Origin: Acutalibacteraceae bacterium
GTDB taxonomy: Bacteria; Bacillota; Clostridia; Oscillospirales; Acutalibacteraceae
Assembly (NCBI GenBank): GCA_045630885.1
Contig: JAZQTQ010000034.1
Coordinates: 18,606-82,605, forward strand
Length of the DNA stretch: 64,000 nucleotides
Direction: 5' to 3'
Position numbers and translations under genes: made by a program. Under the pieces are notes generated by a model. That model did not search any database. It had not been told where the DNA came from and worked only from the letters and a program-made list of their open reading frames with translations. Positions within the stretch are counted from its first letter, which is position 1; each line of letters opens with the position of its first letter. Positions 11,031-24,842 of the stretch are shown one piece after another.

Positions 11031-11061
11031 ATGCTCTGCGAGTTCGCAGAGCATTTTTTTA
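11031..11061. terminator. Bidirectional terminator between convergent dapB and clpC
   Basis: Perfect 10-bp stem ATGCTCTGCG-AGTT-CGCAGAGCAT, followed by a T-run on the plus strand and by the T-rich tail TTCCTTTT on the minus strand. Confidence 0.6.
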
Positions 11062-13503
11062 TTCTTTGATAAAACGATATTCGTCGTTTTCATAGCCCAA
11101 AATAACCCTATCGCCTTTTTTAATCGTACCGTCTAATATCAATTCGCTTAGTTTATCCTCAATCCCGGATTGAATAGCACGTCTTAATGGTCTTGCTCCA
11201 TACACCTCATCAAAACCTGCATCGGCAACTGCTGATATTGCAGTTTTATCAAAAGATATTGCTATTCCCAGACTCTCTAATCTGACTTTTAAAGTATCGA
11301 GCATTTTCTCAGCTATTTTATAAATATCACCTTTGTTTAATTTGTTGAAAACAATAATATCGTCAACTCGATTTAAAAATTCAGGTTTAAACGTTTTCTT
11401 AAGTTCTGATAAAACGTCGTTTTTCATTCTTTCTTCATCCATCTCGGCGGAATCACCTGTCGAGAACCCGAAGGTAGTCTTCTTTTCGGTTATAAATCTA
11501 GCGCCTACGTTGGAGGTCATTATTATAACTGCGTTTTTGAAATCAACTCTACGCCCTTGAGAATCGCTTAATATTCCATCGTCAAGAATTTGTAATAAAA
11601 TATTAAACACGTCGGGATGCGCCTTTTCAATTTCATCAAAAAGAATAACGGAATAAGGCTTTCTGCGAACCATTTCTGTTAGCTTTCCACCCTCATCGAA
11701 ACCGACGTATCCAGGAGGAGAGCCAATCATTTTTGAAACTGTGTGCTGCTCCATATATTCAGACATATCGAGCCTTATCATAGCATCTTCGTCGCCGAAC
11801 ATAGCAGAAGCCAAAGCTTTGCATAGCTCTGTTTTACCAACGCCTGTCGGTCCTAAAAATATAAACGAACCTATCGGTCTTTTGGGGTCTTTTAAGCCAA
11901 CTCTACCTCTGCGTATTGCTCTGGAAACGGAGGAAACTGCTTCGTTTTGCCCAATGATTCTTTCGTGCAACTCGTCCTCTAATCTCAACAAACGTTGGCT
12001 TTCTTCTTCGGTTAATTGAGAAACGGGAATTCCGGTCCATTTTGCAACAATTTCTGCAATTTGAGTTTCATCAACCACACCGGAATAATGGCTATTCTTT
12101 TCCTCCCATTGTTTCTTTGTTTCCTCTAGTTCTCCTCTAAGTCTTCTTTCGTTATCGCGAAGCTCGGCGGCTCTCTCAAATTGTTGAGCTCTGATGGCTT
12201 CGTTTTTCTCTTCGGAGAGTCTCTTAATTTCGGTTTCTTTTTCTTTCAGGTCGTTTGGCGCTGTATATGCCTTCAATCTTACTTTAGAGGCCGCCTCATC
12301 GATAAGGTCGATGGCTTTATCAGGAAGGAATCTGTCCGAAATATACCTTGATGAAAGCTTAACAGCGGCAGAAAGTGCATCGTCGGTTATTTTAACCTTA
12401 TGATGTGCTTCATATTTATCTCTAAGACCTTTCAGAATAAGAATAGCATCCTGTTCGCTTGGTTCTCCAACCGTTACAGGCTGAAATCTTCGCTCTAAAG
12501 CCGCATCTTTTTCAATATTTTTCCTATATTCATCAATAGTTGTTGCGCCGATTACCTGCAAATCTCCTCTTGCAAGCGATGGCTTTAAGATATTTGCGGC
12601 ATCGGTTGAACCTTCTGCTGAACCCGCTCCGATAATTGTATGAACTTCGTCGATAAATAAAATCACATCGCTCGAATTCTTAACTTCATCAATTATAGCT
12701 TTGATTCTTTCTTCAAAATCGCCTCTGTATTTAGTTCCTGCAACCATTCCTGTTAAATCTAAAGAAATAACACGTTTATTTCTCAAGATTTCCGGGGCAT
12801 CATCTGCGGCGATTTTTAATGCAAGCCCTTCTGCTATTGCAGTTTTTCCAACTCCGGGTTCTCCAATCAAGCAAGGGTTGTTTTTAGACCTTCTGCATAG
12901 AATTTGAGTAACTCTTTCGATTTCTTCAAGTCTTCCAATAACGGGGTCTATTTTCCCCTCTTTTGCTTCCTTCGTTAAATCTCTTCCGAATTTTTCAAGA
13001 GTCGGAGTGGAATTTTTTTCATTTTTACCTGATTTCGATTTTTTATTTTCAACAAATTGGCGAGCATCGTCGATACTGAGCGCTTCATCAAGCAAACTAC
13101 CGGCATCTCCGCCTAATTCCTCGATAAATCTTGCGGCGTAATTGTCTGTATCACTTAAAACTCCAATCAGAAGATGTTCCGTACCAACATAAGATTTTTG
13201 CTCTGCTCCCGCTTCTCTTATTGCTGATTCTATAACTCTTTTGGCTCTTGGAGTTAAATGGTCGGGTGTAAGCCTGGTCGGACTACCTCTGCCGATACGT
13301 GTTAGCAAAAGTTGCTCTAAATCTTCGGCAGTTATTCCTCCTGCATTGAGAATTTCCGCAGAAGCAGACGTTTCTTCCCTTAAAAGCCCTAATAAAAGGT
13401 GTTCGCTTCCGACATAGGTATGCCCAAATCTGCCGGCTATATCTATCGCTATATTAAGAACCAGATTCGCTCGTTCAGTGAATCCGTTGAAACTATATCT
13501 CAT
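11059..13503 (-). CDS. clpC: ATP-dependent Clp protease ATP-binding subunit ClpC
   Basis: 814 aa. Has Clp N-repeats, two AAA+ modules ([18 protein letters not shown]) and a UVR-like linker. It is the last gene of ctsR-mcsA-mcsB-clpC. Confidence 0.95.
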
Positions 13504-13522
13504 AAAAAGTCCTCCTTAAATA

Positions 13523-14266
13523 TTAAGAAAATAATTTTTTAAGGGATTCTAAAAAACCTTCCTCCCTTTCAATTATTTGCAAAGCTATTGATTGTAGGTT
13601 TGCTATTGCTGCCGTTTCTGTTATACCAAGCGTTATACTATTCAATAAGCTATAACAGAAGGGTTGATTATTATATCTTGGTAAATTTATCTTAATTAAA
13701 TTAAAACCAATTTTAGAAACCGATTCAGATATATGATAAATTTCTCCGAGTTGCTCAGTACCTTTTAAAAGCATAACAACACTCGCTCTCATTCCCGTTC
13801 CGATATCTGCAGGATTTTCTGTTAAATATCCCAGTTGTTCGCTAAAAGCAATTTGAAGCTCCTCGGAAATTGCGTTATCAATGACGTCTGCCGTTTTATA
13901 AGCTTCCTCCAAAGATAATCCGCTATTAACAACCGATATTTTAATATGGTCCTGCTCCGAAAGCATTATGCCTATATTTTCATCTTTGGACAAAAGAAGA
14001 ATTTTATTCCTTCTATCACTAATAAATTCCTGACTGACAAGAGATTTATAAAACAAATGCTCAATATCATCATTTGAAGCAAATTCCATATCTATTCTTT
14101 TGAAGCCGAAAGATTCGCAAGCTTTTGAATTCGCGACCGCAGTACAGACAAGGTCGTTTACGGCTCTTTTTTGTTCATCATCCAATCGGTCGGGGAAAGC
14201 AAATCCCGCAAGATTTCTTGACAGAGTTATTTTAGAATAAATTGCAATACCTTCATTATTAAGCAT
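13523..14266 (-). CDS. mcsB: Protein-arginine kinase McsB homolog (short form)
   Basis: Phosphagen-kinase-like motifs are present: SRNLAGFAFP, EQDHIKIS, LGYLTENPADIGTGMRASV. The product is only 247 aa. Its position between mcsA and clpC supports the call. Confidence 0.75.
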   Translation of the reverse strand: MLNNEGIAIYSKITLSRNLAGFAFPDRLDDEQKRAVNDLVCTAVANSKACESFGFKRIDMEFASNDDIEHLFYKSLVSQEFISDRRNKILLLSKDENIGIMLSEQDHIKISVVNSGLSLEEAYKTADVIDNAISEELQIAFSEQLGYLTENPADIGTGMRASVVMLLKGTEQLGEIYHISESVSKIGFNLIKINLPRYNNQPFCYSLLNSITLGITETAAIANLQSIALQIIEREEGFLESLKKLFS

Positions 14267-14762
14267 TTTCTTCCCTTCCCTTCAATAAATTTATTTCATC
14301 TCGGATTTTTGCCGCTAATTCAAAATTTTCAACCTCTACTGCGTCTTTAAGCTGTTTCTTAAGTTCTTCAATTCTAGACGTTGAACTTAATCTTGGAGAG
14401 GAAGAAAGCGGAATTTTCCCTTGATGATGAGTTGCGCCGTGTATTCTTCTGAGGGTTGGATAAAGTTGACGATAAAAAGTTTTATAACATTCGGCACAGC
14501 CCATTCTACCCTTGCTCGCAATATCCGAAAAAGATGCTCCACATTGTTTGCAAACGTCTTCATATCCTTTTGGCATTTTGGGATTAAGCGCTTCATCATC
14601 AAAAGCAGAAGCCATCATATTCATAATTCCGAGTCTTCCGAATCTTCCCAAACCTGCGCCCGAAGCACAGTATCCACAAAGATTCATATCCGTAACCCTG
14701 CCATTAATAACCGTGTGTATATGAGTTGTTGCGATATACTTACCGCATTTTTCACATTTCAT
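14259..14762 (-). CDS. mcsA: McsA (UvrB/C-motif, zinc-finger activator of McsB)
   Basis: 167 aa. Has N-terminal CxxC pairs (CEKCGK...CGYC; CKQCG...CAEC) and a C-terminal UVR motif (FELAAKIRDEINLLK). It overlaps mcsB by 8 nt. Confidence 0.8.
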   Translation of the reverse strand: MKCEKCGKYIATTHIHTVINGRVTDMNLCGYCASGAGLGRFGRLGIMNMMASAFDDEALNPKMPKGYEDVCKQCGASFSDIASKGRMGCAECYKTFYRQLYPTLRRIHGATHHQGKIPLSSSPRLSSTSRIEELKKQLKDAVEVENFELAAKIRDEINLLKGREENA

Positions 14763-14782
14763 TTGTTTTAACTCCTTTCAGA

Positions 14783-15235
14783 TTACAGCAAAGATAAAAA
14801 CATCTGTTTTAACAAAGCCGCTCTAACGCTTGCTTTCGCTTCATTTGGAATATGATAAAAAACGTTGCCCGACAAAGCCGCCTCCATTAGCATCGCTGCC
14901 TCTTTGGAAATTAATTGAGAATGTATACAATTCTCAATTATAATTCTGGCTGTTGATAGATCAACCTGACTTCCCATCGAATTAATAATATGCATTATCG
15001 CCGAGGATTTTGACAGGCTAATTCTCGTTATTCTTATATATCCGCCGCCACCTCGCCGACTCTCGATAATATAACCGTGCTCAGGCGTGAACCTAGAAGA
15101 TAATACATAATTTATCTGACTTGGCACACAGCCTATCATTTCGGCAAATTCATTTCTTTGAATTTCCGCAACATTATCTTGAGAGCTATCAAGCATTTCA
15201 ATTATTCTTTTAGAAATAATATCACTTAATCTCAT
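14783..15235 (-). CDS. ctsR: Class III stress-gene repressor CtsR
   Basis: 150 aa. Has an N-terminal wHTH and the ESRRGGGGYIRI glycine loop diagnostic of CtsR. Confidence 0.9.
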   Translation of the reverse strand: MRLSDIISKRIIEMLDSSQDNVAEIQRNEFAEMIGCVPSQINYVLSSRFTPEHGYIIESRRGGGGYIRITRISLSKSSAIMHIINSMGSQVDLSTARIIIENCIHSQLISKEAAMLMEAALSGNVFYHIPNEAKASVRAALLKQMFLSLL

Positions 15236-15409: not shown

Positions 15410-15544
15410 ATGTGTAACAACGGATTTGGCGGATGCGGCTGCTTGTGGATCATCATAATTCTCGTTTTATTGTGCTGCTGCGGAGGTACCGGCAACAACA
15501 ATAGTTGTGGTTGCGGTTGTAGCGATAATAACTGCTGCTGCTAA
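15410..15544 (+). CDS. 44-aa cysteine/glycine-rich small membrane peptide
   Basis: Below the ORF-track cutoff. AAAGGAGG RBS lies 7 nt upstream of the ATG. Translation is MCNNGFGGCGCLWIIIILVLLCCCGGTGNNNSCGCGCSDNNCCC (12 Cys, central hydrophobic helix). A strong terminator lies about 30 nt downstream. Confidence 0.6.
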   Translation: MCNNGFGGCGCLWIIIILVLLCCCGGTGNNNSCGCGCSDNNCCC

Positions 15545-15607: not shown

Positions 15608-16828
15608 TTACGATGCATCTTTTAAATTATTGTTTTGTTCCACGCTTTGGGCGGTTTCGAGCATATTTTCAGCGAATATAGCGTAGCCTTTTGTTGTGTC
15701 GTCGACTAATACGTGAGTAACTGCGCCGATTAGTTTTCCGTTTTGGATTATAGGACTGCCCGACATACCCTGAACTATACCGCCCGCTTTAGATATTAGG
15801 TTTTGGTCGGTAATTTTAATGAGAAAATTTTTATTCCCTTCATCATCAATTATCTTTAAAACCTCGCAAGAATAACTTTTGGGCTCGCCGCCATCAATAG
15901 TTGTTAAAATCTCTGCTTCGCCTTCCGATATTTCAAAATTGAACGCTACCGGATATAGATTTTCTTTCACTTGTTGCTCGCACACTGAATATATTCCATT
16001 TGGACTATTGGTTATCGCTTTTGAATATTCCGAAAACTTAAATCTGCCAAGCAACTCGCCTGCTCTTCCTTTTTTGCTTTTAGCAACAGAAAGTATTTCT
16101 GCTTCAACTAGGCTTCCTTTATTTATAGAAATCATTTCGCCTGTATCACTATCGCAAAGAGGATGTCCGAGCCCTGCAAGTATTTTGTTTTCACTGCTAT
16201 AAAACGTCAATGTTCCAACTCCTGCGGAACTATCACGAACCCACATTCCAAGATGATATTTATTATCTTCGGATGACAGAACCGGTTGAACCGTTGTTTT
16301 GAAAACGCTATTATTTCTCGAATACACGACCTCTAACGGACCTTCACCTACCGATTCAACAATTTTTTCAACCTGACTGTTTGTAAAAACATTTACGTCG
16401 TTGATTGAAATAATATAATCTCCGCTTTTTAGTCCGCTATCACTTGCAGGGCAGATTTTTCCGTATTTTGTCGGAAAAGCAGATAGGTTTATTATTAAAA
16501 CGCCGTCTGTATATAGTTTTATTCCAAATGGTTTTCCTAAAACGTTAACGTAGCTTCGGTTTTGAACACTAACCGAAGCTTCTTTTATAGGAAATACTCC
16601 GAACAGCTTGAAAACTACGTTATAGCTCTGCTTTTGAAATTCTCTTGAAACCGTTTCGCACGCATTTTCTTCTATATTGAAGCTTACTGCAAATGGCATT
16701 TCAAGATTATTTATATCGTCAGCTTTATATTTTGTTTGCAAATTTGAATACGCATAACACATCATCGCTATTAAAGAAAATGCAAGCATAAAAAGCAATA
16801 CACAAAATCTTTTATATCTCTTTTTCAT
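15608..16828 (-). CDS. spoIVB: SpoIVB peptidase (S55 signalling serine protease)
   Basis: 406 aa. Has an N-terminal TM segment, a PDZ region (GLKSGDYIISIND), and S55 protease motifs GTLTFY, GLGHPL, VQGMSGSPI. Confidence 0.9.
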   Translation of the reverse strand: MKKRYKRFCVLLFMLAFSLIAMMCYAYSNLQTKYKADDINNLEMPFAVSFNIEENACETVSREFQKQSYNVVFKLFGVFPIKEASVSVQNRSYVNVLGKPFGIKLYTDGVLIINLSAFPTKYGKICPASDSGLKSGDYIISINDVNVFTNSQVEKIVESVGEGPLEVVYSRNNSVFKTTVQPVLSSEDNKYHLGMWVRDSSAGVGTLTFYSSENKILAGLGHPLCDSDTGEMISINKGSLVEAEILSVAKSKKGRAGELLGRFKFSEYSKAITNSPNGIYSVCEQQVKENLYPVAFNFEISEGEAEILTTIDGGEPKSYSCEVLKIIDDEGNKNFLIKITDQNLISKAGGIVQGMSGSPIIQNGKLIGAVTHVLVDDTTKGYAIFAENMLETAQSVEQNNNLKDAS

Positions 16829-16919: not shown

Positions 16920-17201
16920 TTAAAATCGATTTTTGAACAGACCAAAGTTTTTTCTTTGGTGCGGTGGGTTTATGCCGACAAGAACTGTATCGGGGCCGAT
17001 AACCTTAATTTCATTCCACGGAATTATAATATCATCCTCTCGGCCTAAAACACCGAAGCACCTGCTCCTTCCAAAAATTACCAACGCTATAAGGCGTCCG
17101 CTAGAAGTATCTATTTCGACATCGCAGACGGGTCCTAACGTTATCCCGCTATCGACACATACCACCTGCTTATCCCGAAGCTCTGAAATTCTACAACCCA
17201 T
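16920..17201 (-). CDS. ymxH: YlmC/YmxH-family PRC-barrel sporulation protein
   Basis: ISELRDKQVVCVDSGITLGPVCDVEIDTSSGRLIALVI...IIPWNEIKVIGPDTVLV matches the YlmC/YmxH family. The start is set at the ATG at 17201 (GAGGTG 8 nt upstream). The track ORF starts 8 codons earlier. Confidence 0.8.
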   Translation of the reverse strand: MGCRISELRDKQVVCVDSGITLGPVCDVEIDTSSGRLIALVIFGRSRCFGVLGREDDIIIPWNEIKVIGPDTVLVGINPPHQRKNFGLFKNRF

Positions 17202-17264
17202 ATATAATTCACCTCTAAAATTCATTAATTCAATATATGGATTTTGGGGTTAATTTATGAGCGT

Positions 17265-17753
17265 TTATACGTTCCCTTTAATTCTGTTTAAAGCCGATTT
17301 TTCTAACCTTGATACCTGCGCTTGACTTATTCCGATTTCTTCCGAAACCTCCATTTGCGTTAATCCGTCAAAAAATCGCAATCTAAGAATTTTCTTTTCC
17401 CTTTCATTAAGGTTTTTTATCGACTCTTTAAAAGATATTTCATCTATCCAATTTTCATCGTCATTTTTATCTCCAATTTGGTCTAAAACATAGATAGTAT
17501 CCCCACTATCGGAATAAACCGGCTCATACAAGGAAACGGGATCAACGACGCTTTCTAAAGCTATAACCACCTCGTGTTTTTTCAATCCTAATTCCTTTGC
17601 AATTTCTTCAACTGTTGGCTCTCTTTGTAGTTTTGCTGTTAGTTTTTCCTTAACCTGCATTGATTTATAAGCAACATCTTTTATAGAACGACTCACTCGA
17701 ACGCTATTATTATCACGTAGGTATCTTCTGATTTCTCCAATAATCATCGGCAC
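17265..17753 (-). CDS. sigG: sigG 3' segment (regions 2.4-4 of forespore sigma factor SigG), separated from its 5' segment by an intervening element
   Basis: (V)PMIIGEIRRYLRDNNSVRVSRSIKDVAYK...DPVSLYEPVYSDSGDTIYVLDQIGD...LTQMEVSEEIGISQAQVSRLEKSALNRIK is near-colinear with B. subtilis SigG from residue ~98 onward (recalled sequence). There is no RBS or plausible native start. The reading frame begins inside the 10-bp att core. Confidence 0.9.
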   Translation of the reverse strand: MPMIIGEIRRYLRDNNSVRVSRSIKDVAYKSMQVKEKLTAKLQREPTVEEIAKELGLKKHEVVIALESVVDPVSLYEPVYSDSGDTIYVLDQIGDKNDDENWIDEISFKESIKNLNEREKKILRLRFFDGLTQMEVSEEIGISQAQVSRLEKSALNRIKGNV

Positions 17754-17771
17754 GAATATTGTTTGACGAAA
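17744..17771. repeat. attL: 10-bp core TCATCGGCAC plus element-side arm GAATATTGTTTGACGAAA
   Basis: The core is identical to 24423-24432. The arm is an inverted copy (16 of 18 nt) of TTTCGACAAATAATATTC at 24407-24424. Confidence 0.8.
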
Positions 17772-17824
17772 TAAGAATAAACTATTGTTTTAGGGGGAAA
17801 ATATTTTAAAGGAGAGCAAAAAAT

Positions 17825-18013
17825 ATGAAAAAGAATACCAGAGAAGAAACAAAATCCAAAAGAGGTTATCAAAGAAATTCAGACGATACTGCTTTTGATA
17901 TAATAACAAAATACGGAACCTATAATATTCAACCTACCGCCGATACTGAAAATCCTTACCCGAAAATCGCTCAGGGTCTTCCAAAAGAAAAAAGCGAACG
18001 AAAAAAACATTAA
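17825..18013 (+). CDS. Hypothetical 62-aa hydrophilic, basic protein (first gene inside the element)
   Basis: AAAGGAG RBS 9-10 nt upstream of the ATG, with a terminator hairpin immediately downstream. I recognise no family. Confidence 0.5.
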   Translation: MKKNTREETKSKRGYQRNSDDTAFDIITKYGTYNIQPTADTENPYPKIAQGLPKEKSERKKH

Positions 18014-18041
18014 AAAAAGCACCCCCGAAGGGTGCTTTTTA
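18012..18041. terminator. Bidirectional terminator inside the element
   Basis: AGCACCC-CCGAA-GGGTGCT flanked by an A-run and a T-run, between convergent genes. Confidence 0.6.
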
Positions 18042-18042
18042 A

Positions 18043-19464
18043 TCATATATACAAGCCTGCTTCTCTTAACTTCTTTTGAAGAATCGATACATCTATTTCA
18101 CAGGCATTTTTATTAGTATCCTTTGCTATTGCAGATGCAGTTCCAACTGCCTGACCTGTCATAACGCAGGTTCCTTGAATACGAGTGCTTGAATGTGCGA
18201 TATGGTCGGAGGAAATACATCTTCCGCAAGCGAGAAGATTGGAAATATCCTTAGAAGCAACAGCTCCAAAAGGAATATCATAACAATCTCCTTTTATGCT
18301 ACCTCCGATGGCTCTCGCCTTTCCTGTCGGATCGTGAATATCAATTATGTATGAGCCACGAGCAATAACGTCGGGGAATTCTTTACAGTTTATTGCATCA
18401 ATTCCGCGAAGAATTGTTTTTCCAACCAATCTTCTTGTTTCTCTAACTCCAAGAGTGAAACCGGACTGTAAATAATAAGCATTTTCGAATCCGGGAATAA
18501 ATGTTTTGAGAAAATCAACAAGAGCAATAATTTGCTTTTGCGCAAGCAATTCTCCCCTATTGAGATCTTCTGAATCCGAACCGTTTATATTAACGACTCT
18601 CGACATATTTATAACCGCAACGCCTTCTCTGTTTGAACGAGTTACCAAAACTCTGCCTTGAGGCATAGGAATGGCATCTCCTGTTATTTCAAATCCACAA
18701 GTACCGGCAAATTTCCAATCCATAAAGCGTTCTTTGGTTATTCCCAAATCGCCGAATTTGAGGTCTTTGTTATTTAGCGTATATGCTTTATCAACGTCAA
18801 CACCGCCCATTAGGAAGAAAATCGAAACAGGTTGCATCATTCCCTCGTGTCCATAACCCTCAAACTTATTCTCGCTGAAATGCGATTTATTAAGGCCACT
18901 TTCAACCAGAGCGTCAAAATCTCCCGCTGCGCTTCCTAATGCATATTCCGCACCTGACAATGCCACCAAATCAGCATCGCCGCTAGCATCAATAAAGGTT
19001 TTGGCAACTATTTTTGTTAATCCCGATTTATCGCAAGCAACACATGATTTTATTTCGTTATTTTCAGTTTCAACCGAAATCAAGGTTGAGTGAAAACGAA
19101 TTTCAACACCTGCTTTGTCAAGCAAATCAATCAGAACGTATTTTAAAATATGGGGTGATGCAATATCAGATATCTTGCCTTTTGCTCCGCAAGAGCAATA
19201 TTCTTTGCTTAAATTTATTGTTTCATCACATATTTCATCAACAAGTCCGCCAAAACGTTTACCCGAAACCGTTGTAACAGCATCTAACGGGGTTACGAGT
19301 CCTAACGTTGCTTGACCGCCAAGAACTCCACTTGATTCGATTAAAACTGTTTTACAACCATTTCTTGAAGCCGCAATCGCTGCAGAACAGCCCGCTAAAC
19401 CTCCGCCTATAACAACTGTATCACAAAAAATTTCTTTATTAATATTTAAAACAACATTGTTCAT
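18043..19464 (-). CDS. FAD-dependent oxidoreductase (FAD_oxidored/PF12831-like)
   Basis: 473 aa. N-terminal dinucleotide-binding motif DTVVIGGGLAGCSAAIAASRNGCKTVLIESSGVLGGQAT. Confidence 0.8.
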   Translation of the reverse strand: MNNVVLNINKEIFCDTVVIGGGLAGCSAAIAASRNGCKTVLIESSGVLGGQATLGLVTPLDAVTTVSGKRFGGLVDEICDETINLSKEYCSCGAKGKISDIASPHILKYVLIDLLDKAGVEIRFHSTLISVETENNEIKSCVACDKSGLTKIVAKTFIDASGDADLVALSGAEYALGSAAGDFDALVESGLNKSHFSENKFEGYGHEGMMQPVSIFFLMGGVDVDKAYTLNNKDLKFGDLGITKERFMDWKFAGTCGFEITGDAIPMPQGRVLVTRSNREGVAVINMSRVVNINGSDSEDLNRGELLAQKQIIALVDFLKTFIPGFENAYYLQSGFTLGVRETRRLVGKTILRGIDAINCKEFPDVIARGSYIIDIHDPTGKARAIGGSIKGDCYDIPFGAVASKDISNLLACGRCISSDHIAHSSTRIQGTCVMTGQAVGTASAIAKDTNKNACEIDVSILQKKLREAGLYI

Positions 19465-19479
19465 AATAACAATCCTTTC

Positions 19480-20271
19480 CTACCATTTCGCTGAACAGTT
19501 AAAGAAGTCCGTTCCAATGAAGCCAACTTGAGCAAAGTCTTCGGGATTTGCCCTGATAATATAATCAATATAAGACATAATAACCTTTGCCATAAATTTA
19601 TATCCCATCGGATTCATATGTCCGCCGAGGAAGAATGCCTTTCTGAATTCAGGAGAATCATAATCAGTTCCATATTTGCAAAGGTCCAGAACATAAGTGT
19701 AGTCAAACAAATTTGCTAATTCCTTCAAAAGCTTTGTATGCTCGGCAATTATTGTTTGATCTCTGCCTTTCGGGAATCCAACGAGAAAAAACTTAGCTTT
19801 AGGCTGAATTTCCTTATATCTTTGAATAATTTTTCCATAGTTTCCGGCAAAGGTATCTTTATTATTGTTATAGTCATTGAGATCAATGTCATCAATCGAA
19901 CCTATCGGTTTTTTTCGATTACATAGGTCATTAACTCCCAGCGCTATTATATAAGCCTGCGCCTTTAATTCCGGATTCCAAAAGTCTTTACTTTCCGCGA
20001 AAGATTCGCAGTATTCACGGGCAGTCATACCGCCTCTTGAAAAATTATAGACTTTGCTGCCTGTCTCTCTGGCAAGAAATTGACCCCATGAATATTCAAA
20101 ATAATCATGGTAACCCTTCTCGCCATTTTCGTTGAGCGATTCAAATTCACCCGAAGATAAACTATCTCCAACGCAAGCTATCGTTCTAAAAATCGAACAA
20201 AAACCTCCATCGGAAACTATATTATCAAGCGGATTTTCGCCCTCATTAATAAAAAAACGAGATATATCCAT
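19480..20271 (-). CDS. SGNH/GDSL-family hydrolase (esterase)
   Basis: 263 aa. Has block I ACVGDSLSSGE, a GGMT block and GVNDL. No signal peptide is apparent. Confidence 0.8.
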   Translation of the reverse strand: MDISRFFINEGENPLDNIVSDGGFCSIFRTIACVGDSLSSGEFESLNENGEKGYHDYFEYSWGQFLARETGSKVYNFSRGGMTAREYCESFAESKDFWNPELKAQAYIIALGVNDLCNRKKPIGSIDDIDLNDYNNNKDTFAGNYGKIIQRYKEIQPKAKFFLVGFPKGRDQTIIAEHTKLLKELANLFDYTYVLDLCKYGTDYDSPEFRKAFFLGGHMNPMGYKFMAKVIMSYIDYIIRANPEDFAQVGFIGTDFFNCSAKW

Positions 20272-20331
20272 TTTTTACACCTTCTAAAAACACCGCAGAC
20301 ACATTGAAAAGTGTCTGCGGTTAAAATGATA

Positions 20332-22776
20332 TTAAGCGCCTAAGGTTACTTCAACCTTATAAACATTACCGGAGGTTTCGGGGTTGAGAACATTGCCTTC
20401 AACCTCTTTACCGTTAACGATCATCTTAGAAACGCCGCAACAAACCTTATTGGGGTTCTTAACAGAAATTTCAAAGGTATTTCCACGGAATTTACGAACG
20501 ATAGTGAAGTCTTCCATATTGTGGTCTACGCAAGGATCAATAATCAAACCGCTATAATCCGGACGAATGCCGAGAATGAATTGAGAAATAGCAACAAAGT
20601 TCCAAGCTGCAGTACCCGTTAAGAAAGAGTTCTTAGCCTCGCCGGGCTTCTTAGCATAAGCAGGCTTACCACCAACCATCTGAGCATATACGTATGGCTC
20701 AAGACGATGAACTTCACTGAATTCCTCAACATATCCGGGAGCAATTCTTTTATACATTTCAAATGCTTTATCGCCGCGACGTGCTATTGTTTCTGCGCAC
20801 ATAAGCCAAGGATTGTTATGGCAGAATACACCGCCGTTTTCTTTATAACCGGGGATAAATGAACCAATTTCACCGATTTCAGGATTAAAGGTGCTATAAG
20901 GAGGATCAAGAACAACAAATCCATAAGGAGTTGCAAGACGCTCCCAACAGCTATCAAGGGATTTTATATTCATTCCTTGATCCTTGCCGATTTCTGCCAT
21001 TGAGCACCAGCCCTGTGATTCGATAAAGATTTTTCCGTCATCACATTTTGAAGAACCAATAGGTCTGCTAAAATGATCGTATGCACGCAAGAACCATTCG
21101 CCGTCCCAACCATCTTTGATGATTGCTTTTTCCATAGCTTCAATATGTCCCTTTGCTGCTTCTGCTTCATCAAGCTTTCCGATTAAGCGGCAAATCTTTT
21201 CGAAATCTCTACCATAATAAACAAACTGACCTGCAATCATAAGACTTTCTGCAGTTTTGCAATCGGTTTTCTCTGTTCTCTGGAAGCTCTCGCCAACAGT
21301 ATTAGACATACAGTTAAGGTTGAGGCAATCGTTCCAGTCAGCTCTTCCGATAAGCGGTAGATCATGTGGTCCTTTGTTATTAACAACGTGATAGAAAGCG
21401 CGTTTTAAGTGGTCGAACATTGTATCAGCAAGTTCTTCTTTATTCTCATAAGGAACCATTTCTTCAAGAAGTCCGAAATCTCCTGTTTCCTTAATGTACG
21501 CTGCGACGGAAGCAATAAGCCACATTGGGTCATCGCCAAAGTTGCCGCCGATTTCGTCATTACCCTTCTTGGTTAAAGGCTGATACTGATGATATGCTCC
21601 ACCGTCAACAAGCTGAGTTGATGCAAGGTCTATAACTCTTTGACGAGCACGTTCCGGAGCCAAATGAACGAAACCGAGAACGTCTTGGTTACTATCTCTG
21701 AAGCCCATACCTCTGCCTATTCCACTTTCAAAATATGAAGCGCTTCTGGACATATTAAAGGTGATCATTGTTTGATACTGATTCCAGATGTTAACCGTTC
21801 TATCCAATTTCTCGTCGGCACTCTTAATTGTGAATATGCTAAGGAGTTCATCCCAATATGCCTTAAGCTCTTCGAGAGCTTTATCAGCCTTTTCAGATGT
21901 ATTGAATTGCTCCATCATTGGATACGCATTTTCTTTATTGATTACGTTAAGAGCCGTCCATTTTTTATCCTGCTCATTTTCAACATAGCCAAGAATGAAA
22001 ACAAATTCTTTTGTTTCGCCGGGTTCTAATTCAACGTTTAAGCAATGAGAACCGATTGGAGCCCAACCGACTGCAATAGAATTTGTAGGAGCGGTTTCGC
22101 AAACGGTTACGGGGTGGTCAAAGCCATTATAGATACCTAAGAAATCCTCACGGTCGGTATCAAATCCACAAATATCAGCATTAACGCTATAGAAAGCAAA
22201 ATGATTTCTACGCTCGCGATATTCTGTTTTGTGATAAACAACGTTACCTTCAACCTCAACTTCACCAACAGAGAGGTTTCTCTGAAAGTTTGTTTGATCA
22301 TCAAGGCCGTCCCAAAGAGCGAACTCGATGAAAGAATGAAGTTTTAATTCCTTCTTAGCGTTGGTGTTGTTTGTTAAAGCAACCTTCTGAACCTCTCCGG
22401 CATAGTTTAGAGGAACAAAGAAGGTGCATTCAGCGGTAACACCATCTTTTTCGCCATGCACGACAGTATAACCCATACCATGACGACATTCATATTTATC
22501 AAGAGGAGTTCTCATAGGTCTGAAGCCAGGGCTCCAAACAGTATCTCCGTCTTTTATGTAGAAATATCTTCCGCCATCGTCCATAGGAACGTTATTATAA
22601 CGGAATCTGGTGATTCTGCGAAGTCTTGCATCACGATAGAAACTATATCCACCGCAAGTATTGGAAATCATCGAGAAAAATGACTCGTTTCCAAGATAGT
22701 TAATCCAAGGATAGGGCGTGTTAGGTGTTTCAATAACATACTCTTTCCTCGCATCATCAAAATGACCGAATTTCAT
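20332..22776 (-). CDS. GH94 glycoside phosphorylase (cellobiose / chitobiose phosphorylase family)
   Basis: [64 protein letters not shown] is the typical cellobiose-phosphorylase N-terminus, and the ~814-aa size fits. The start is set at the second ATG (GGAGG 9 nt upstream). Confidence 0.9.
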
Positions 22777-22858
22777 AAACATTAACCTCCATTTTGCCGT
22801 TGAAACAGCATTTTATTTAATAATATCATAACATCGCAAAAAATACAATAAATAATTT

Positions 22859-22888
22859 GCATATTTTTTTGTTTTTTTGACAAAAATT
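22859..22888 (+). promoter_or_regulatory. Candidate forespore (SigF/SigG-type) promoter upstream of the recombinase module
   Basis: GCATA (22859-22863), 15-nt T-rich spacer, GACAAAAATT (22879-22888). Compared with my recalled SigF consensus GCATR-N15-GGNNANAHTR there are 2 mismatches in the -10. Pattern match only. Confidence 0.3.
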
Positions 22889-22911
22889 ATTCGCAAGGAC
22901 GGTGAAAAAGT

Positions 22912-23058
22912 ATGGTTATAAAAAACATTGATACAAATGGAAACACAGTCGACTTTAAGAAAATAGAAAATTTGGTTTTATCAAACAAGATTTGCAATCA
23001 GATCCTATCAAATACTCTTGAAAATATTTCGGAGGATTATGAAAATGAAAAAGGATAA
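22912..23058 (+). CDS. Hypothetical 48-aa ORF overlapping the recombinase start (candidate accessory/directionality factor)
   Basis: The ATG at 22912 is preceded by GGTGAAAAAG. Translation is MVIKNIDTNGNTVDFKKIENLVLSNKICNQILSNTLENISEDYENEKG. The stop at 23056-23058 overlaps the recombinase start region in another frame. No homology is recognised. Confidence 0.3.
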   Translation: MVIKNIDTNGNTVDFKKIENLVLSNKICNQILSNTLENISEDYENEKG

Positions 23059-24406
23059 AATAACTGCGCTTTACGTTAGGGTTTCAACAGATGCTCAAGC
23101 AGAAGAAGGATATTCGATTGATGCTCAAAAGGAAATGCTTTTAGGATACTGCAAATCCAAACAAATAGAAAACTACGAGTTTTTTATAGATGGTGGGTTT
23201 TCGGGGAGCAATATAGAGCGTCCCGAAATGTCAAGACTTATTGAAAAAATCAAAAGCAAAGAAATAAAATCTGTTGTTGTTTACAAGCTCGACAGACTAT
23301 CAAGAAGCCAAAAAGATACCCTTTTTCTAATCGAAGACGTATTAAATCCCAACCAAACAGAATTTGTTTCGCTCAACGAAAATTTAGACACCTCAACCTC
23401 TATAGGCAGAGCGATGCTCGGCATTATGTCCGCCTTTGCTCAACTTGAAAGAGAAACAATTAAGGAACGAACCCGAATCGGAATGAAAAAGAGGGTTGAA
23501 GCCGGTTTTTGGATGGGCGGAGGCAAAGTTCCTTTTGGCTTTGATTACGATAAAACAAGTGGAAAACTCATAAAAAATCAAGATTCAAACGTCGTTAAAA
23601 AGATATATGAAATGTATATTGACGGCCATTCTGCTAATTATATCGCCTCGGCGTTAGGCTTTAAATATGACCAGCAAATCATTCAGATTATTAAAAGAAA
23701 ATCTAATTACGGCTCTATTATGTATAACGGAAAAGAATATGAAAACTGCCACGAAGGAATTATAGATAAAAGCCTTTATTTGCAAGCAATGACGGAAATG
23801 AAAAGGCGGTCTAAACAAAAAGTTCCAACATCAAAATACCTATTAACAGGTCTTTTGGAATGTGGCGAATGCAAAGCTAAATTAAGATATCAAAAATGGG
23901 GCAAATATTCAACAAAAATAGTTTGTTATTCCAGAGAAAAATCAAAAAAATATTTGATTAAAGATGAAAATTGTTCGCTTCCGATTTTTGATTCTGAAAT
24001 TATCGAAAACTATGTATTACAAGAAATTTTTAAAATCAAAACAAATTCGATTAAGCCCAATAGCGAGGATAAAATAAATGTTATTAAAGAGCTTAAAGAA
24101 AGAAAAAGACAATTTGAAAATGAACTTAAAAGACTATATTCCCTATTCTCAAAAAGTGATGATGATATACTAATCGAAGCCATTGAAGAAGCTAAAGAAC
24201 GATTGCAGAACATCAAAAAACTGATACAGTCCGAAGAAGAAAAAGGTGTTGTAAGCAAAGAAAAAAAGTTAATATTCGATAAACTTGACAACATAAAATC
24301 GATATGGAAATACATCTCAATACACGAGCAACAACAATTCATAAGAAGCATTATTGAAAAGATTGTAGTTTCAAAAACAAGTATTGAGATTGTTTATAGG
24401 CTATGA
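23031..24406 (+). CDS. Large serine recombinase (SpoIVCA / phage serine-integrase family)
   Basis: Has the N-terminal resolvase catalytic domain (ITALYVRVSTDAQ, YKLDRLSRS, ERETIKERT), a recombinase domain, a zinc-ribbon (CGECKAKL...C) and a long coiled-coil tail. The start is ATG 23031 or 23037 (GGAGGA at 23023-23028). The track TTG at 23018 is less likely. The stop at 24404-24406 abuts the right att arm. Confidence 0.9.
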
Positions 24407-24714
24407 TTTCGACAAATAATATTCATCGGCACGGCATAGGTTGAAAAACGCACGTTTTGAGATATATCAAAATTATCTATCGCTTTTATAAGTCCAATGC
24501 AACCAACCTGGAACAGATCGTCCGGATTTTCTCCCCTGCCTACGAATCTTTGAATTACACTTAGAATCAACCTTAGATTGCCGTTTATAAGTTCCTCCCT
24601 TGCTTTCATATCACCTTCTTTTACTCTTTTTAAAAGTTCCTCTTTTTGCGATTCTTTTAAAACAGGTAATCCTGCCGTATTGACTCCGCAGATTTCAACT
24701 TTGTTATACTGCAT
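24394..24714 (-). CDS. sigG: sigG 5' segment (regions 1.2-2.3 of SigG); native coding ends in the att core at ~24424, followed by 9 element-encoded codons
   Basis: MQYNKVEICGVNTAGLPVLKESQ...GNLRLILSVIQRFVGRGENPDDLFQVGCIGLIKAIDNFDISQNVRFSTYAVPM carries the SigG-specific NKVEICGV-T--LPVLK N-terminus. GGGAGG RBS upstream. After AVPM the frame reads NIICRNHSL-stop from element DNA. Confidence 0.9.
   Translation of the reverse strand: MQYNKVEICGVNTAGLPVLKESQKEELLKRVKEGDMKAREELINGNLRLILSVIQRFVGRGENPDDLFQVGCIGLIKAIDNFDISQNVRFSTYAVPMNIICRNHSL
24407..24432. repeat. attR: element-side arm TTTCGACAAATAATATTC plus 10-bp core TCATCGGCAC
   Basis: Partner of 17744-17771. The arm and core overlap by 2 nt. 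Confidence 0.8.
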
Positions 24715-24738: not shown

Positions 24739-24768
24739 CATTATTACCTTTTAAAACTTTTGGAATAC
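24739..24768 (-). promoter_or_regulatory. Candidate SigF-type forespore promoter of sigG
   Basis: On the minus strand: GTATT (24764-24768), 15-nt spacer CCAAAAGTTTTAAAA, GGTAATAATG (24739-24748). The -10 fits my recalled consensus GGNNANAHTR at every specified position. It ends ~24 nt upstream of the ATG. Confidence 0.45.
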
Positions 24769-24842
24769 AAAAAACAGGAATATATATTTTTTATTCTTCG
24801 ACAAAAAATGCTTGACAAATGAAATTATTTTTATTAACAAAA

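Follow-up and report, generated by a model that had tools for sequence, protein, structure and literature searches.

A sigG gene split by a 6.7-kb element

SigG is the late sigma factor of the forespore. In a 64,000-nucleotide stretch of DNA of an Acutalibacteraceae bacterium (GenBank assembly GCA_045630885.1, contig JAZQTQ010000034.1, positions 18,606 to 82,605 of the forward strand; hereafter the window), the sigG gene lies on the minus strand and was found to be interrupted at Pro96/Met97 by an insert of 6,679 bp flanked by an 11-bp direct repeat. The 5′ part of the gene (24424..24714, minus strand) holds codons 1-97; the open reading frame (ORF) called there (24714..24394) continues through nine codons derived from the element (NIICRNHSL) to a stop at 24394, and its product reads MQYNKVEICGVNTAGLPVLK...NVRFSTYAVPM followed by these nine unrelated codons. 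The 3′ part (17265..17753, minus strand) holds codons 95/98-256, starts with (V)PMIIGEIRRYLRDNN and contains complete regions 3 and 4, region 4 being normal. No Shine-Dalgarno sequence was present upstream of the GTG with which this part begins. It is followed by ylmC/ymxH (16920-17225) and then by spoIVB (15608-16828), both of which are intact.

The core repeat, TCATCGGCACG on the plus strand, occupies positions 17744-17754 and 24423-24433, a spacing of 6,679 bp. When positions 17755-24433 (the insert with one copy of the repeat) were deleted in silico, a 771-nt ORF of 256 amino acids was obtained. The joined protein scored 432.7 bits against the NCBIfam SigG model NF006071 and passed its cut-off of 372, while it stayed under the cut-off of the SigF model TIGR02885 (308 bits, cut-off 321.45); the cut-off of the stricter SigG model TIGR02850 was not reached (427.8 bits, cut-off 457). 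It aligned end to end with what we take to be the sequence of B. subtilis SigG, including the junction and the N-terminal KVEICGVNT motif. The sigG split is thus real, and a precise site-specific deletion rebuilds the gene, with CCAATAATCATCGGCACGGCATAGG as the predicted attB and AATAATATTCATCGGCACGAATATTG as the predicted attP. A route to SigG through a split protein or an intein was also considered and was rejected, since the 3′ part lacks a ribosome-binding site and no intein motifs were found. No further sigG-, sigF- or sigE-like gene was detected within the 64-kb window.

Anatomy of the element

The left attachment site, attL (17744..17771), is made up of the core repeat (17744-17754) and the element arm AATATTGTTTGACGAAA (17755-17771), and the right one, attR (24407..24433), of the element arm TTTCGACAAATAATATT (24407-24423) and the second core repeat (24423-24433). 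When the two ends of the element are joined they form an attP whose inverted-repeat arms, TTTCGACAAATAATATT and AATATTGTTTGACGAAA, match at 15 of 17 positions.

At one extremity lies a gene for a large serine recombinase (LSR; 23045..24406, plus strand), which encodes 453 amino acids from its ATG, is convergent with the 5′ part of sigG and ends 17 bp from the core repeat. The protein carries Resolvase, Recombinase and Zn_ribbon_recom domains (PF00239, E 4e-39; PF07508; PF13408) and an RVST serine motif, and its residues R12, S14 and T15 were invariant across 23 homologues. It matched the PHROG 95 integrase with an E value of 5.6e-110, and the nearest solved structure to its catalytic domain was that of the TP901-1 integrase (3bvp). 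Among curated recombinase families the best match was the CcrB model, far under its cut-off; the match to the XisF model was weak (107.6 bits, cut-off 375). By its domains and att anatomy the insert qualifies as an LSR integrative element, with a recombinase predicted to catalyse both integration and excision.

An initial annotation of this stretch, made from the letters alone, had described most of this arrangement. Its two sigG ORFs (24394-24714 and 17265-17753), the uninterrupted 256-residue protein to be gained on excision and the large serine recombinase at one extremity all held, and so did its view that a skin-like element sits here in a forespore gene and not in a mother-cell gene, the joined ORF scoring as SigG. 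Its repeat was right in having two copies 6,679 bp apart, but the true repeat measures 11 bp and not 10; the 10-mer quoted there occurs on the plus strand only at the two repeat sites, and its reverse complement is absent.

Two small genes accompany the recombinase. ORF-B (22912..23058, plus strand, 48 amino acids) overlaps the start of the recombinase gene and was conserved in six related contigs (L081, L083, L084, L085, L088 and L089); it is a candidate recombination directionality factor, and in other recombinase subfamilies an ORF is also present at this position. ORF-A (17825..18013, plus strand, 62 amino acids), at the opposite end of the element, carries the motif KYGTYxIQPTADTENxFPKIAQGL and was conserved in L083-L085. 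The family of which it is a member comprises 1,475 small (45-100 amino acids) unannotated proteins with the motif KYGTYxIQPTAxTxN..PKIxQGL. Neither ORF-A nor ORF-B had a match in Pfam, NCBIfam or PHROGs, and the tblastn matches of both were confined to the clade of elements that carry cellobiose phosphorylase. Known directionality factors share no common signature, and neither of the two can therefore be assigned to this role.

The cargo consists of three minus-strand genes. The largest encodes a GH94 cellobiose phosphorylase (20332..22782; 1262 bits against PDB 3qde; 90-95% identical across the clade), and it is accompanied by genes for a GDSL/SGNH hydrolase (19480..20271) and a FAD-dependent oxidoreductase (18043..19464; PF12831), each found in the window and L084 only. 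Between the convergent ORF-A and oxidoreductase genes there is a hairpin (18014..18040), which the terminator scan called on the minus strand only; with its palindromic stem, flanked by an A-run and a T-run on opposite sides, it could terminate ORF-A as well. No phage, transfer or replication genes were found in the element. Its GC content (0.35-0.41) does not stand out from that of the flanks (0.31-0.38).

As a separate observation, the attP arms contain TTTGTCGAAA throughout the recombinase family described below (positions 17755-17771 and 24407-24423 in the window), which resembles the consensus Spo0A box; the resemblance possibly coincides with a binding preference of the recombinase, the attB arm ATTATTGGAGAAA being similar.

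The split in related genomes

Besides the 64 kb of the window genome, about 20 kb of each relative was read. Recombinase homologues of about 453 amino acids were found at 61-79% identity, and four of the contigs carrying them were read (L081, 79%; L083, 69%; L084, 67%; L085, 63%). In L084 and L085 the order is spoIVB, ylmC, the 3′ part of sigG, ORF-A, optionally the oxidoreductase and hydrolase genes, GH94, ORF-B, the recombinase and the 5′ part of sigG, with the break at the same codon as in the window and with homologous att arms. L083 has the same genes with the 5′ part of sigG inverted, and L081, at a contig end, shows one end of the element only (the end of GH94, ORF-B, the recombinase and the 5′ part). 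The two halves gave a reconstructed full-length SigG of 255 amino acids in L083, L084 and L085.

The proportion of synonymous differences (pS) was saturated, at 0.60-0.88, for host genes (spoIVB, ylmC, sigG) and element genes (recombinase, GH94, ORF-A) alike, while the nonsynonymous proportion (pN) of the sigG halves was 0.03-0.13, with dN/dS at most about 0.05. Both halves were intact in all four genomes that yielded both, that is the window, L083, L084 and L085. The sigG halves, judged by these substitution patterns, have long been kept under strong purifying selection. The nearest host pairs were also the nearest element pairs, namely L083 with L084 (SpoIVB 68%, SigG 93%) and the window with L081, which points to an element inherited together with its host and not recently transferred. 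The GH94 cargo was 90-95% identical among lineages whose SpoIVB identity falls to 50%. Recent horizontal transfer was considered as an explanation and rejected, because synonymous sites of GH94 are still saturated, as in the host genes; the pattern indicates very strong purifying selection on this central enzyme of fibre degradation.

Uninterrupted sigG genes were found as well. The closest intact SigG proteins in a collection of 5.8 billion proteins were 84-88% identical to the joined protein, and contigs with the uninterrupted gene were obtained (L248-L251). The gene order in L249-L251 equals that of the window (LicD, glycerophosphotransferase, LicD, sigG, ylmC, spoIVB), and the order in L248 equals it from sigG onward. 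Judged by the identity of SpoIVB, the genomes with the empty site are as near to the window as the carriers are. The best 80 sigG loci in a set of species-representative genomes were all intact, at no more than 79% identity.

A recombinase family that targets one sigG codon

When metagenomes were scanned with the alignment of recombinases, 80 loci of 41-76% identity were obtained. The count of sigG breaks was based on 88 sequences (87 loci and the window), with seven IMG/VR contigs in addition. In 62 of the 88 sequences, and in the seven IMG/VR contigs, sigG was broken at residues 95-99. On more than 60 contigs a sigG interrupted at the same codon was flanked by a recombinase, down to about 43% identity, and the sigG fragment mostly lay just past the 3′ end of that recombinase gene; among recombinases of less than 40% identity none of the 23 informative loci adjoined sigG. 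Ten distant sigma fragments were scored, and all ten scored best as SigG, by 32 to 99 bits over SigF; the possibility that they were sigK fragments of skin elements, or sigF, was thereby rejected. By evolutionary criteria, the split described here is functional and long maintained, and it is one case of a widespread family, of which the initial annotation had seen this single member.

Three arrangements were distinguished. In type A, that of the window, the recombinase gene is convergent with the 5′ part of sigG; in type B it runs in the direction of sigG, directly upstream of the 3′ part; and in type C, seen in L126 only, it lies directly downstream of the 5′ part. In the sense of sigG, all 5′ junctions read ...GCCGTGCCGATG / RATRT..TTGTCGAAA and all 3′ junctions read TTTCGACAAA..AYRTYC RTGCCGATG / ATTATTGG. 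From the centre of symmetry the crossover can be placed, by inference, at the CC of the Pro96 codon. This CC was invariant in 65 intact sigG genes, which follows from coding constraint.

The elements themselves differ widely. L093 (345-4587) holds the smallest, 2.66 kb between sigG halves that come directly after sigE, with genes for a BMC-domain shell protein, a 70-residue ORF and the recombinase, all in the direction of sigG. L143 carries a 7.6-kb transporter cassette. In the complete isolate genome of Acidaminobacterium chupaoyuni (CP176394.1; L261, 4302-11872) a 6.8-kb oxidative-stress cassette lies downstream of spoIIGA-sigE and encodes a CoA-disulfide-reductase-like protein with a rhodanese domain, AhpC, MarR, LysR and a sulfite-reductase-like protein. 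In a second complete isolate genome, that of Oscillospiraceae bacterium MB08-C2-2 (CP141729.1; L086), sigG is split by an element resembling an integrative and conjugative element (ICE). In both L261 and L086 the gene caller had missed the sigG fragments. No species-description paper was found for Acidaminobacterium, which was sought for its spore-forming ability. L177-L181 are large regions (80-110 kb) predicted to be prophages, and they carry genes of nucleotide metabolism (L179 was scanned).

A tailed-phage contig of 33.8 kb (IMGVR_UViG_3300045988_137872; L174/L259) encodes a replication initiator, large terminase, portal, head protease and major head protein, together with a recombinase 53% identical to that of the window. 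Directly after the recombinase gene it carries an intact attP, TTTCGACTAGGTACATTC-ATGCCGAT-GAATGTACCTAGTCGAAA, whose arms are perfectly palindromic around the sigG core (GCCG). Its arm was also found fused to the 5′ part of sigG in L168 and L160, and the free and the integrated form of one element type are thus both seen, which, like the empty sites in relatives, is indirect evidence that the family recombines actively. Among the named phages of INPHARED no recombinase exceeded 44% identity.

L083 (6860-12160; GCA_045542355.1, JAZQKX010000008.1) departs from the three arrangements. The 5′ part of sigG, together with its promoter, runs opposite to the 3′ part; the att sites, with identical 18-nt arms, stand in inverted orientation, and a third, degenerate sequence resembling an arm comes after the stop codon of the recombinase gene. 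Recombination between the att sites would here invert 4.9 kb and rebuild sigG without release of the element, as far as a single contig can indicate.

Putative promoters of sigG and of the element

The σF consensus was taken as GCATR-15-GGnRAYAMTW; all promoter assignments follow the consensus of B. subtilis. A putative σF-type promoter of sigG was recognised at 24740..24768 on the minus strand (GTATT-15 nt-GGTAATAAT), and its -10 element was conserved in relatives as GGYAATAMT. Just upstream of it, at 24797-24819, there are Spo0A-box-like sequences (TTTGTCGAA / TTTGTCAAG), and similar boxes occur in the clade. Within the element, 22 nt from its end, a σF-like promoter precedes ORF-A (17775..17803, plus strand, GAATA-14 nt-GGGGAAAATA); at this position L083 has a perfect match (GCATA-14-GGAGATACTA) and L085 a good -10 (GGTTAAACTA). 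A promoter-like motif before ORF-B and the recombinase (22859..22888, plus strand, GCATA-15 nt-GACAAAAATT) has a -35 of the forespore type and an imperfect -10, and it was conserved as G[CA]ATA-15-GnYAAAAATT. The σF-type regular expression matched seven sites on both strands of the window, with 2.3 expected, and these include the promoters of sigG and ORF-A.

Across the family, σF-like motifs were enriched upstream of the recombinase (5 of 56 members, against 1.3% in control segments). The σG pattern had no match upstream of the recombinase in the 56 family members, and the σE and σK patterns had one match each in the 56 upstream regions, both in L142 and thousands of bases from the recombinase start, which were treated as spurious. 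No mother-cell (σE or σK) promoter was thus recognised by this consensus scan for the recombinase or a directionality factor. When the σF-type -10 alone was considered, it was found upstream of 9 of the 50 family recombinases scanned, and the promoter argument therefore cannot be extended to the whole family. The upstream region of spoIVB offered no clear forespore promoter that could serve as a host reference.

A different link to sigG expression was seen in the type C element (L126, 686-2460; termite-gut contig Ga0131853_10189783), where the ATG of the recombinase and the TAA that ends the truncated sigG 5′ ORF overlap (gtaTAATGg). This overlap predicts translational coupling of the recombinase to the sigG fragment, with expression from the promoter of sigG, which the recombinase would lose on excision. 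Nearly every gene of the small type B elements runs in the direction of sigG, and read-through from the sigG promoter is possible. Taken as sequence motifs, the σF-like promoters and the coupling in L126 lean towards expression in the forespore.

Proposed mechanism and alternative explanations

We propose that sigG harbours a domesticated, non-phage LSR integrative element whose removal by attL × attR recombination, with crossover at the CC of Pro96, would be required for SigG. Excision would coincide with sporulation, taking place in the forespore or shortly before division, and would be driven by the σF-type promoters before ORF-A and before the ORF-B/recombinase operon, with the product of ORF-A or ORF-B acting as directionality factor in the manner of SprB (SPβ) and CD1234 (skinCd). 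LSR enzymes integrate when their directionality factor is absent. As the likeliest and simplest route, the excised circle would stay in the forespore, so that the recombinase alone could reintegrate it once the directionality factor has disappeared, and selection for the cellobiose phosphorylase cargo would remove any cured cells. Since SigG is needed in the future spore and the 6.7-kb element has no genes for transfer or replication, retention in the germ line is required. Programmed excision in the forespore with retention of the element is the best-supported mechanism, and we hold it with moderate confidence; the time of excision, the cell in which it occurs and the retention in the spore genome are what we infer.

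The broader proposal, which we put forward tentatively and with some doubt, is that of a reversible rearrangement of germ-line DNA. A σF-driven recombinase and a directionality factor would excise the element and rebuild sigG, as a DNA-level checkpoint between σF and σG; the trapped circle would reintegrate before dormancy or at germination, and every spore would both use and keep the element. L083 would reach the same end by its 4.9-kb inversion, and the arrangement would occur widely among the Clostridia of gut and rumen, where phages, ICE-like elements and metabolic cassettes would all exploit it.

Several observations weigh against programmed excision with retention. Upstream of ORF-B and the recombinase the -10 is without its second G, that of ORF-A in L084 is weaker and without GG, the σF-like motif is missing in most family members, and the promoter calls depend on the B. 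subtilis consensus. No homology between ORF-B and a known directionality factor could be detected. The case for ORF-A as a dedicated factor of this kind is weakened in turn by its absence from the other sigG elements although its family numbers 1,475; it may instead be a cargo protein of the forespore, for which sspC, carried on SPβ, is a precedent, and given the σF-like promoter here the whole family may consist of undescribed forespore proteins. Neither an attB nor an attP excision junction was seen for the window element or its nearest relatives, nor was an intact SigG of more than 88% identity, as an excised allele would be, present in the collection of 5.8 billion proteins. The presence of the element is patchy, the nearest relative of the carrier L085 being the empty-site genome L248, and the patchiness reflects either loss by excision or repeated gain. 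The reintegration of the circle is purely conjectural.

In an alternative reading, the highly conserved sigG codons are a mere integration site with no developmental programme behind it, and carriers are asporogenous, with rare spontaneous excision giving rise to cured cells that sporulate (bet-hedging or 'active lysogeny'). A conserved attB would explain enough in a family that includes true temperate phages and an ICE-like element, and the attB is indeed constrained by coding, down to the invariant crossover CC in 65 intact genes; the empty sites in close relatives and the absence of a recognisable sporulation promoter from most members fit as well. However, the small elements have no genes for transfer, replication or packaging and could not return once lost from spores, they appear to have diverged together with their hosts (dS is saturated, and purifying selection acts on sigG), and the σF-like promoters and the coupling of the L126 recombinase to the sigG 5′ fragment favour regulated expression. 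We consider this explanation unlikely, though it is the main rival. Between reintegration of the circle and stochastic excision, both of which the initial annotation had listed, the evidence leans towards regulated expression in the forespore.

Many gut Clostridia have lost sporulation, and sigG might be dead, the insertion having inactivated sporulation or followed its loss, with the halves in decay; no observation made here favours this. The initial annotation had listed a recent sporulation-inactivating insertion among its possibilities and had named frameshifts in the halves of relatives as the sign of simple decay. The halves are intact in the window, L083, L084 and L085 (pN 0.03-0.13, dN/dS at most about 0.05), the adjacent spoIVB and ylmC are intact, and the recombinase and att arms are conserved. 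Together with the saturated pS and the agreement between host and element divergence, the intact halves rule out a recent inactivating insertion, and simple decay is largely refuted; a dead sigG is very improbable. The same annotation had suggested comparing close relatives, which brought to light both the same element (L081, L083-L085) and the uninterrupted gene (L248-L251). It had also remarked that sigG stands alone here, which is true; the position is, however, typical of the clade and occurs in the empty-site genomes L248 and L249 too, and is therefore unrelated to the element.

SigG might further be supplied by a second, intact sigG elsewhere in the genome, as the initial annotation had considered, the split copy being tolerated or used conditionally. 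The readable sequence, 64 kb of the window genome and about 20 kb per relative, leaves room for such a gene and counts to that extent against the requirement for excision. Yet the window has no other sigG- or sigF-like match, the split copy occupies the ancestral position (sigG-ylmC-spoIVB here, spoIIGA-sigE-sigG in L093 and L261), and a redundant copy would not be expected under purifying selection of such strength, so that we regard a second gene as quite improbable. An assembly artefact or chimeric contig, which the initial annotation had also raised, might come to mind because the relatives of the window are mostly metagenome-assembled genomes. More than 60 contigs of independent origin, drawn from different studies and with two complete isolate genomes among them, nevertheless show the same break with matching att arms, and an artefact can be dismissed with near certainty.

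Neighbouring genes

Outside the sigG locus, a 44-residue Cys/Gly-rich ORF (MCNNGFGGCGCLWIIIILVLLCCCGG...) was noted at 15410-15544 on the plus strand, between ctsR and spoIVB; it resembles what we take to be the tiny YjcZ-type membrane peptides of sporulation. On the minus strand (11059-15235), downstream of ctsR, which Pfam confirmed, lie three ORFs of 167, 247 and 814 amino acids; by position and size only, these are presumably mcsA, mcsB and clpC.

Significance

The sigG family, apparently undescribed, breaks the rule that interrupting elements in spore formers lie in mother-cell genes only, and its members need some other means of retention in the germ line, be it reintegration, inversion or addiction to cargo. 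A DNA rearrangement would add a control step to the σF-to-σG transition, the control of which remains debated. There is a consequence for annotation as well: genomes with the split will be scored as sigG-negative, and marker-based predictions of sporulation for gut and rumen Clostridia would be biased by it. The family also provides many natural sets of recombinase, attB and attP that share a highly conserved 40-bp target, which are potential tools. The split can be tested now, since two complete isolate genomes carry it (CP176394.1 and CP141729.1).

Comparison with known systems

No report of a split sigG was found in the full-text literature, subscription-only literature aside, by searches for sigG with intervening elements, recombinases, prophages and attB. 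In the papers on skin, SPβ, vfbin, vrin and gin the interrupted genes are mother-cell genes, and excision confined to the mother cell keeps the element in the spore genome (PMC4191935, PMC5595907). For 180 genomes whose sporulation genes were surveyed in 2022, 15 skin elements and no split sigG were listed (10.1101/2022.02.25.481979), and the sporulation cases given in a 2026 review are skin and SPβ only, classed as non-reversible (PMC13492144).

The closest parallel is the skin element in sigK (SpoIVCA in B. subtilis, CD1231 with CD1234 in C. difficile), where the coding sequence of a sporulation sigma factor is likewise split and precise excision restores the ORF. Skin elements vary in size and cargo, with the recombinase alone in common, as do the members of the sigG family (10.1101/2022.02.25.481979, PMC5025042). 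In C. difficile the recombinase is made constitutively, and a 72-residue directionality factor, dependent on σE/SpoIIID and with no known homologues, confines excision to one compartment (PMC5025042). The differences are nevertheless clear. The target in sigG is a forespore, and hence germ-line, sigma factor, so that excision is not hidden in a dying cell; the motifs found in the sigG elements are of the σF type and not of the σE/SpoIIID or σK type; the recombinases belong to a clade of their own; and the sigG family comprises three architectures and one inverted case.

SPβ in spsM (SprA/SprB) with its miniaturised derivatives, gin in gerE, vfbin in spoVFB and vrin in spoVR resemble the sigG family in ranging from full temperate phage to phage-gene-free element with the same recombinase and att site (PMC4191935, PMC5595907, PMC5499854). 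A small directionality factor is to be expected in both, and non-viral cargo is found in both, as in gin. These elements, however, interrupt mother-cell genes, and their logic of retention does not apply to sigG. The Listeria phage in comK is a reversible switch of the 'active lysogeny' kind. SpyCIM1, between mutS and mutL, is another reversible switch (PMC13492144). Such elements excise to switch a host function on, return to switch it off and are not lost, which is the behaviour that the sigG element would need; they are unlinked to spore development, and for the sigG element reversibility is a proposal. The heterocyst elements (XisF with fdxN, XisA with nifD, XisC with hupL) are excised during development from a gene needed in the differentiated cell, as would be the case with sigG, although heterocysts are terminally differentiated, the opposite of the forespore. 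The machinery is thus of a known kind, while the target compartment and the logic that results from it are new.

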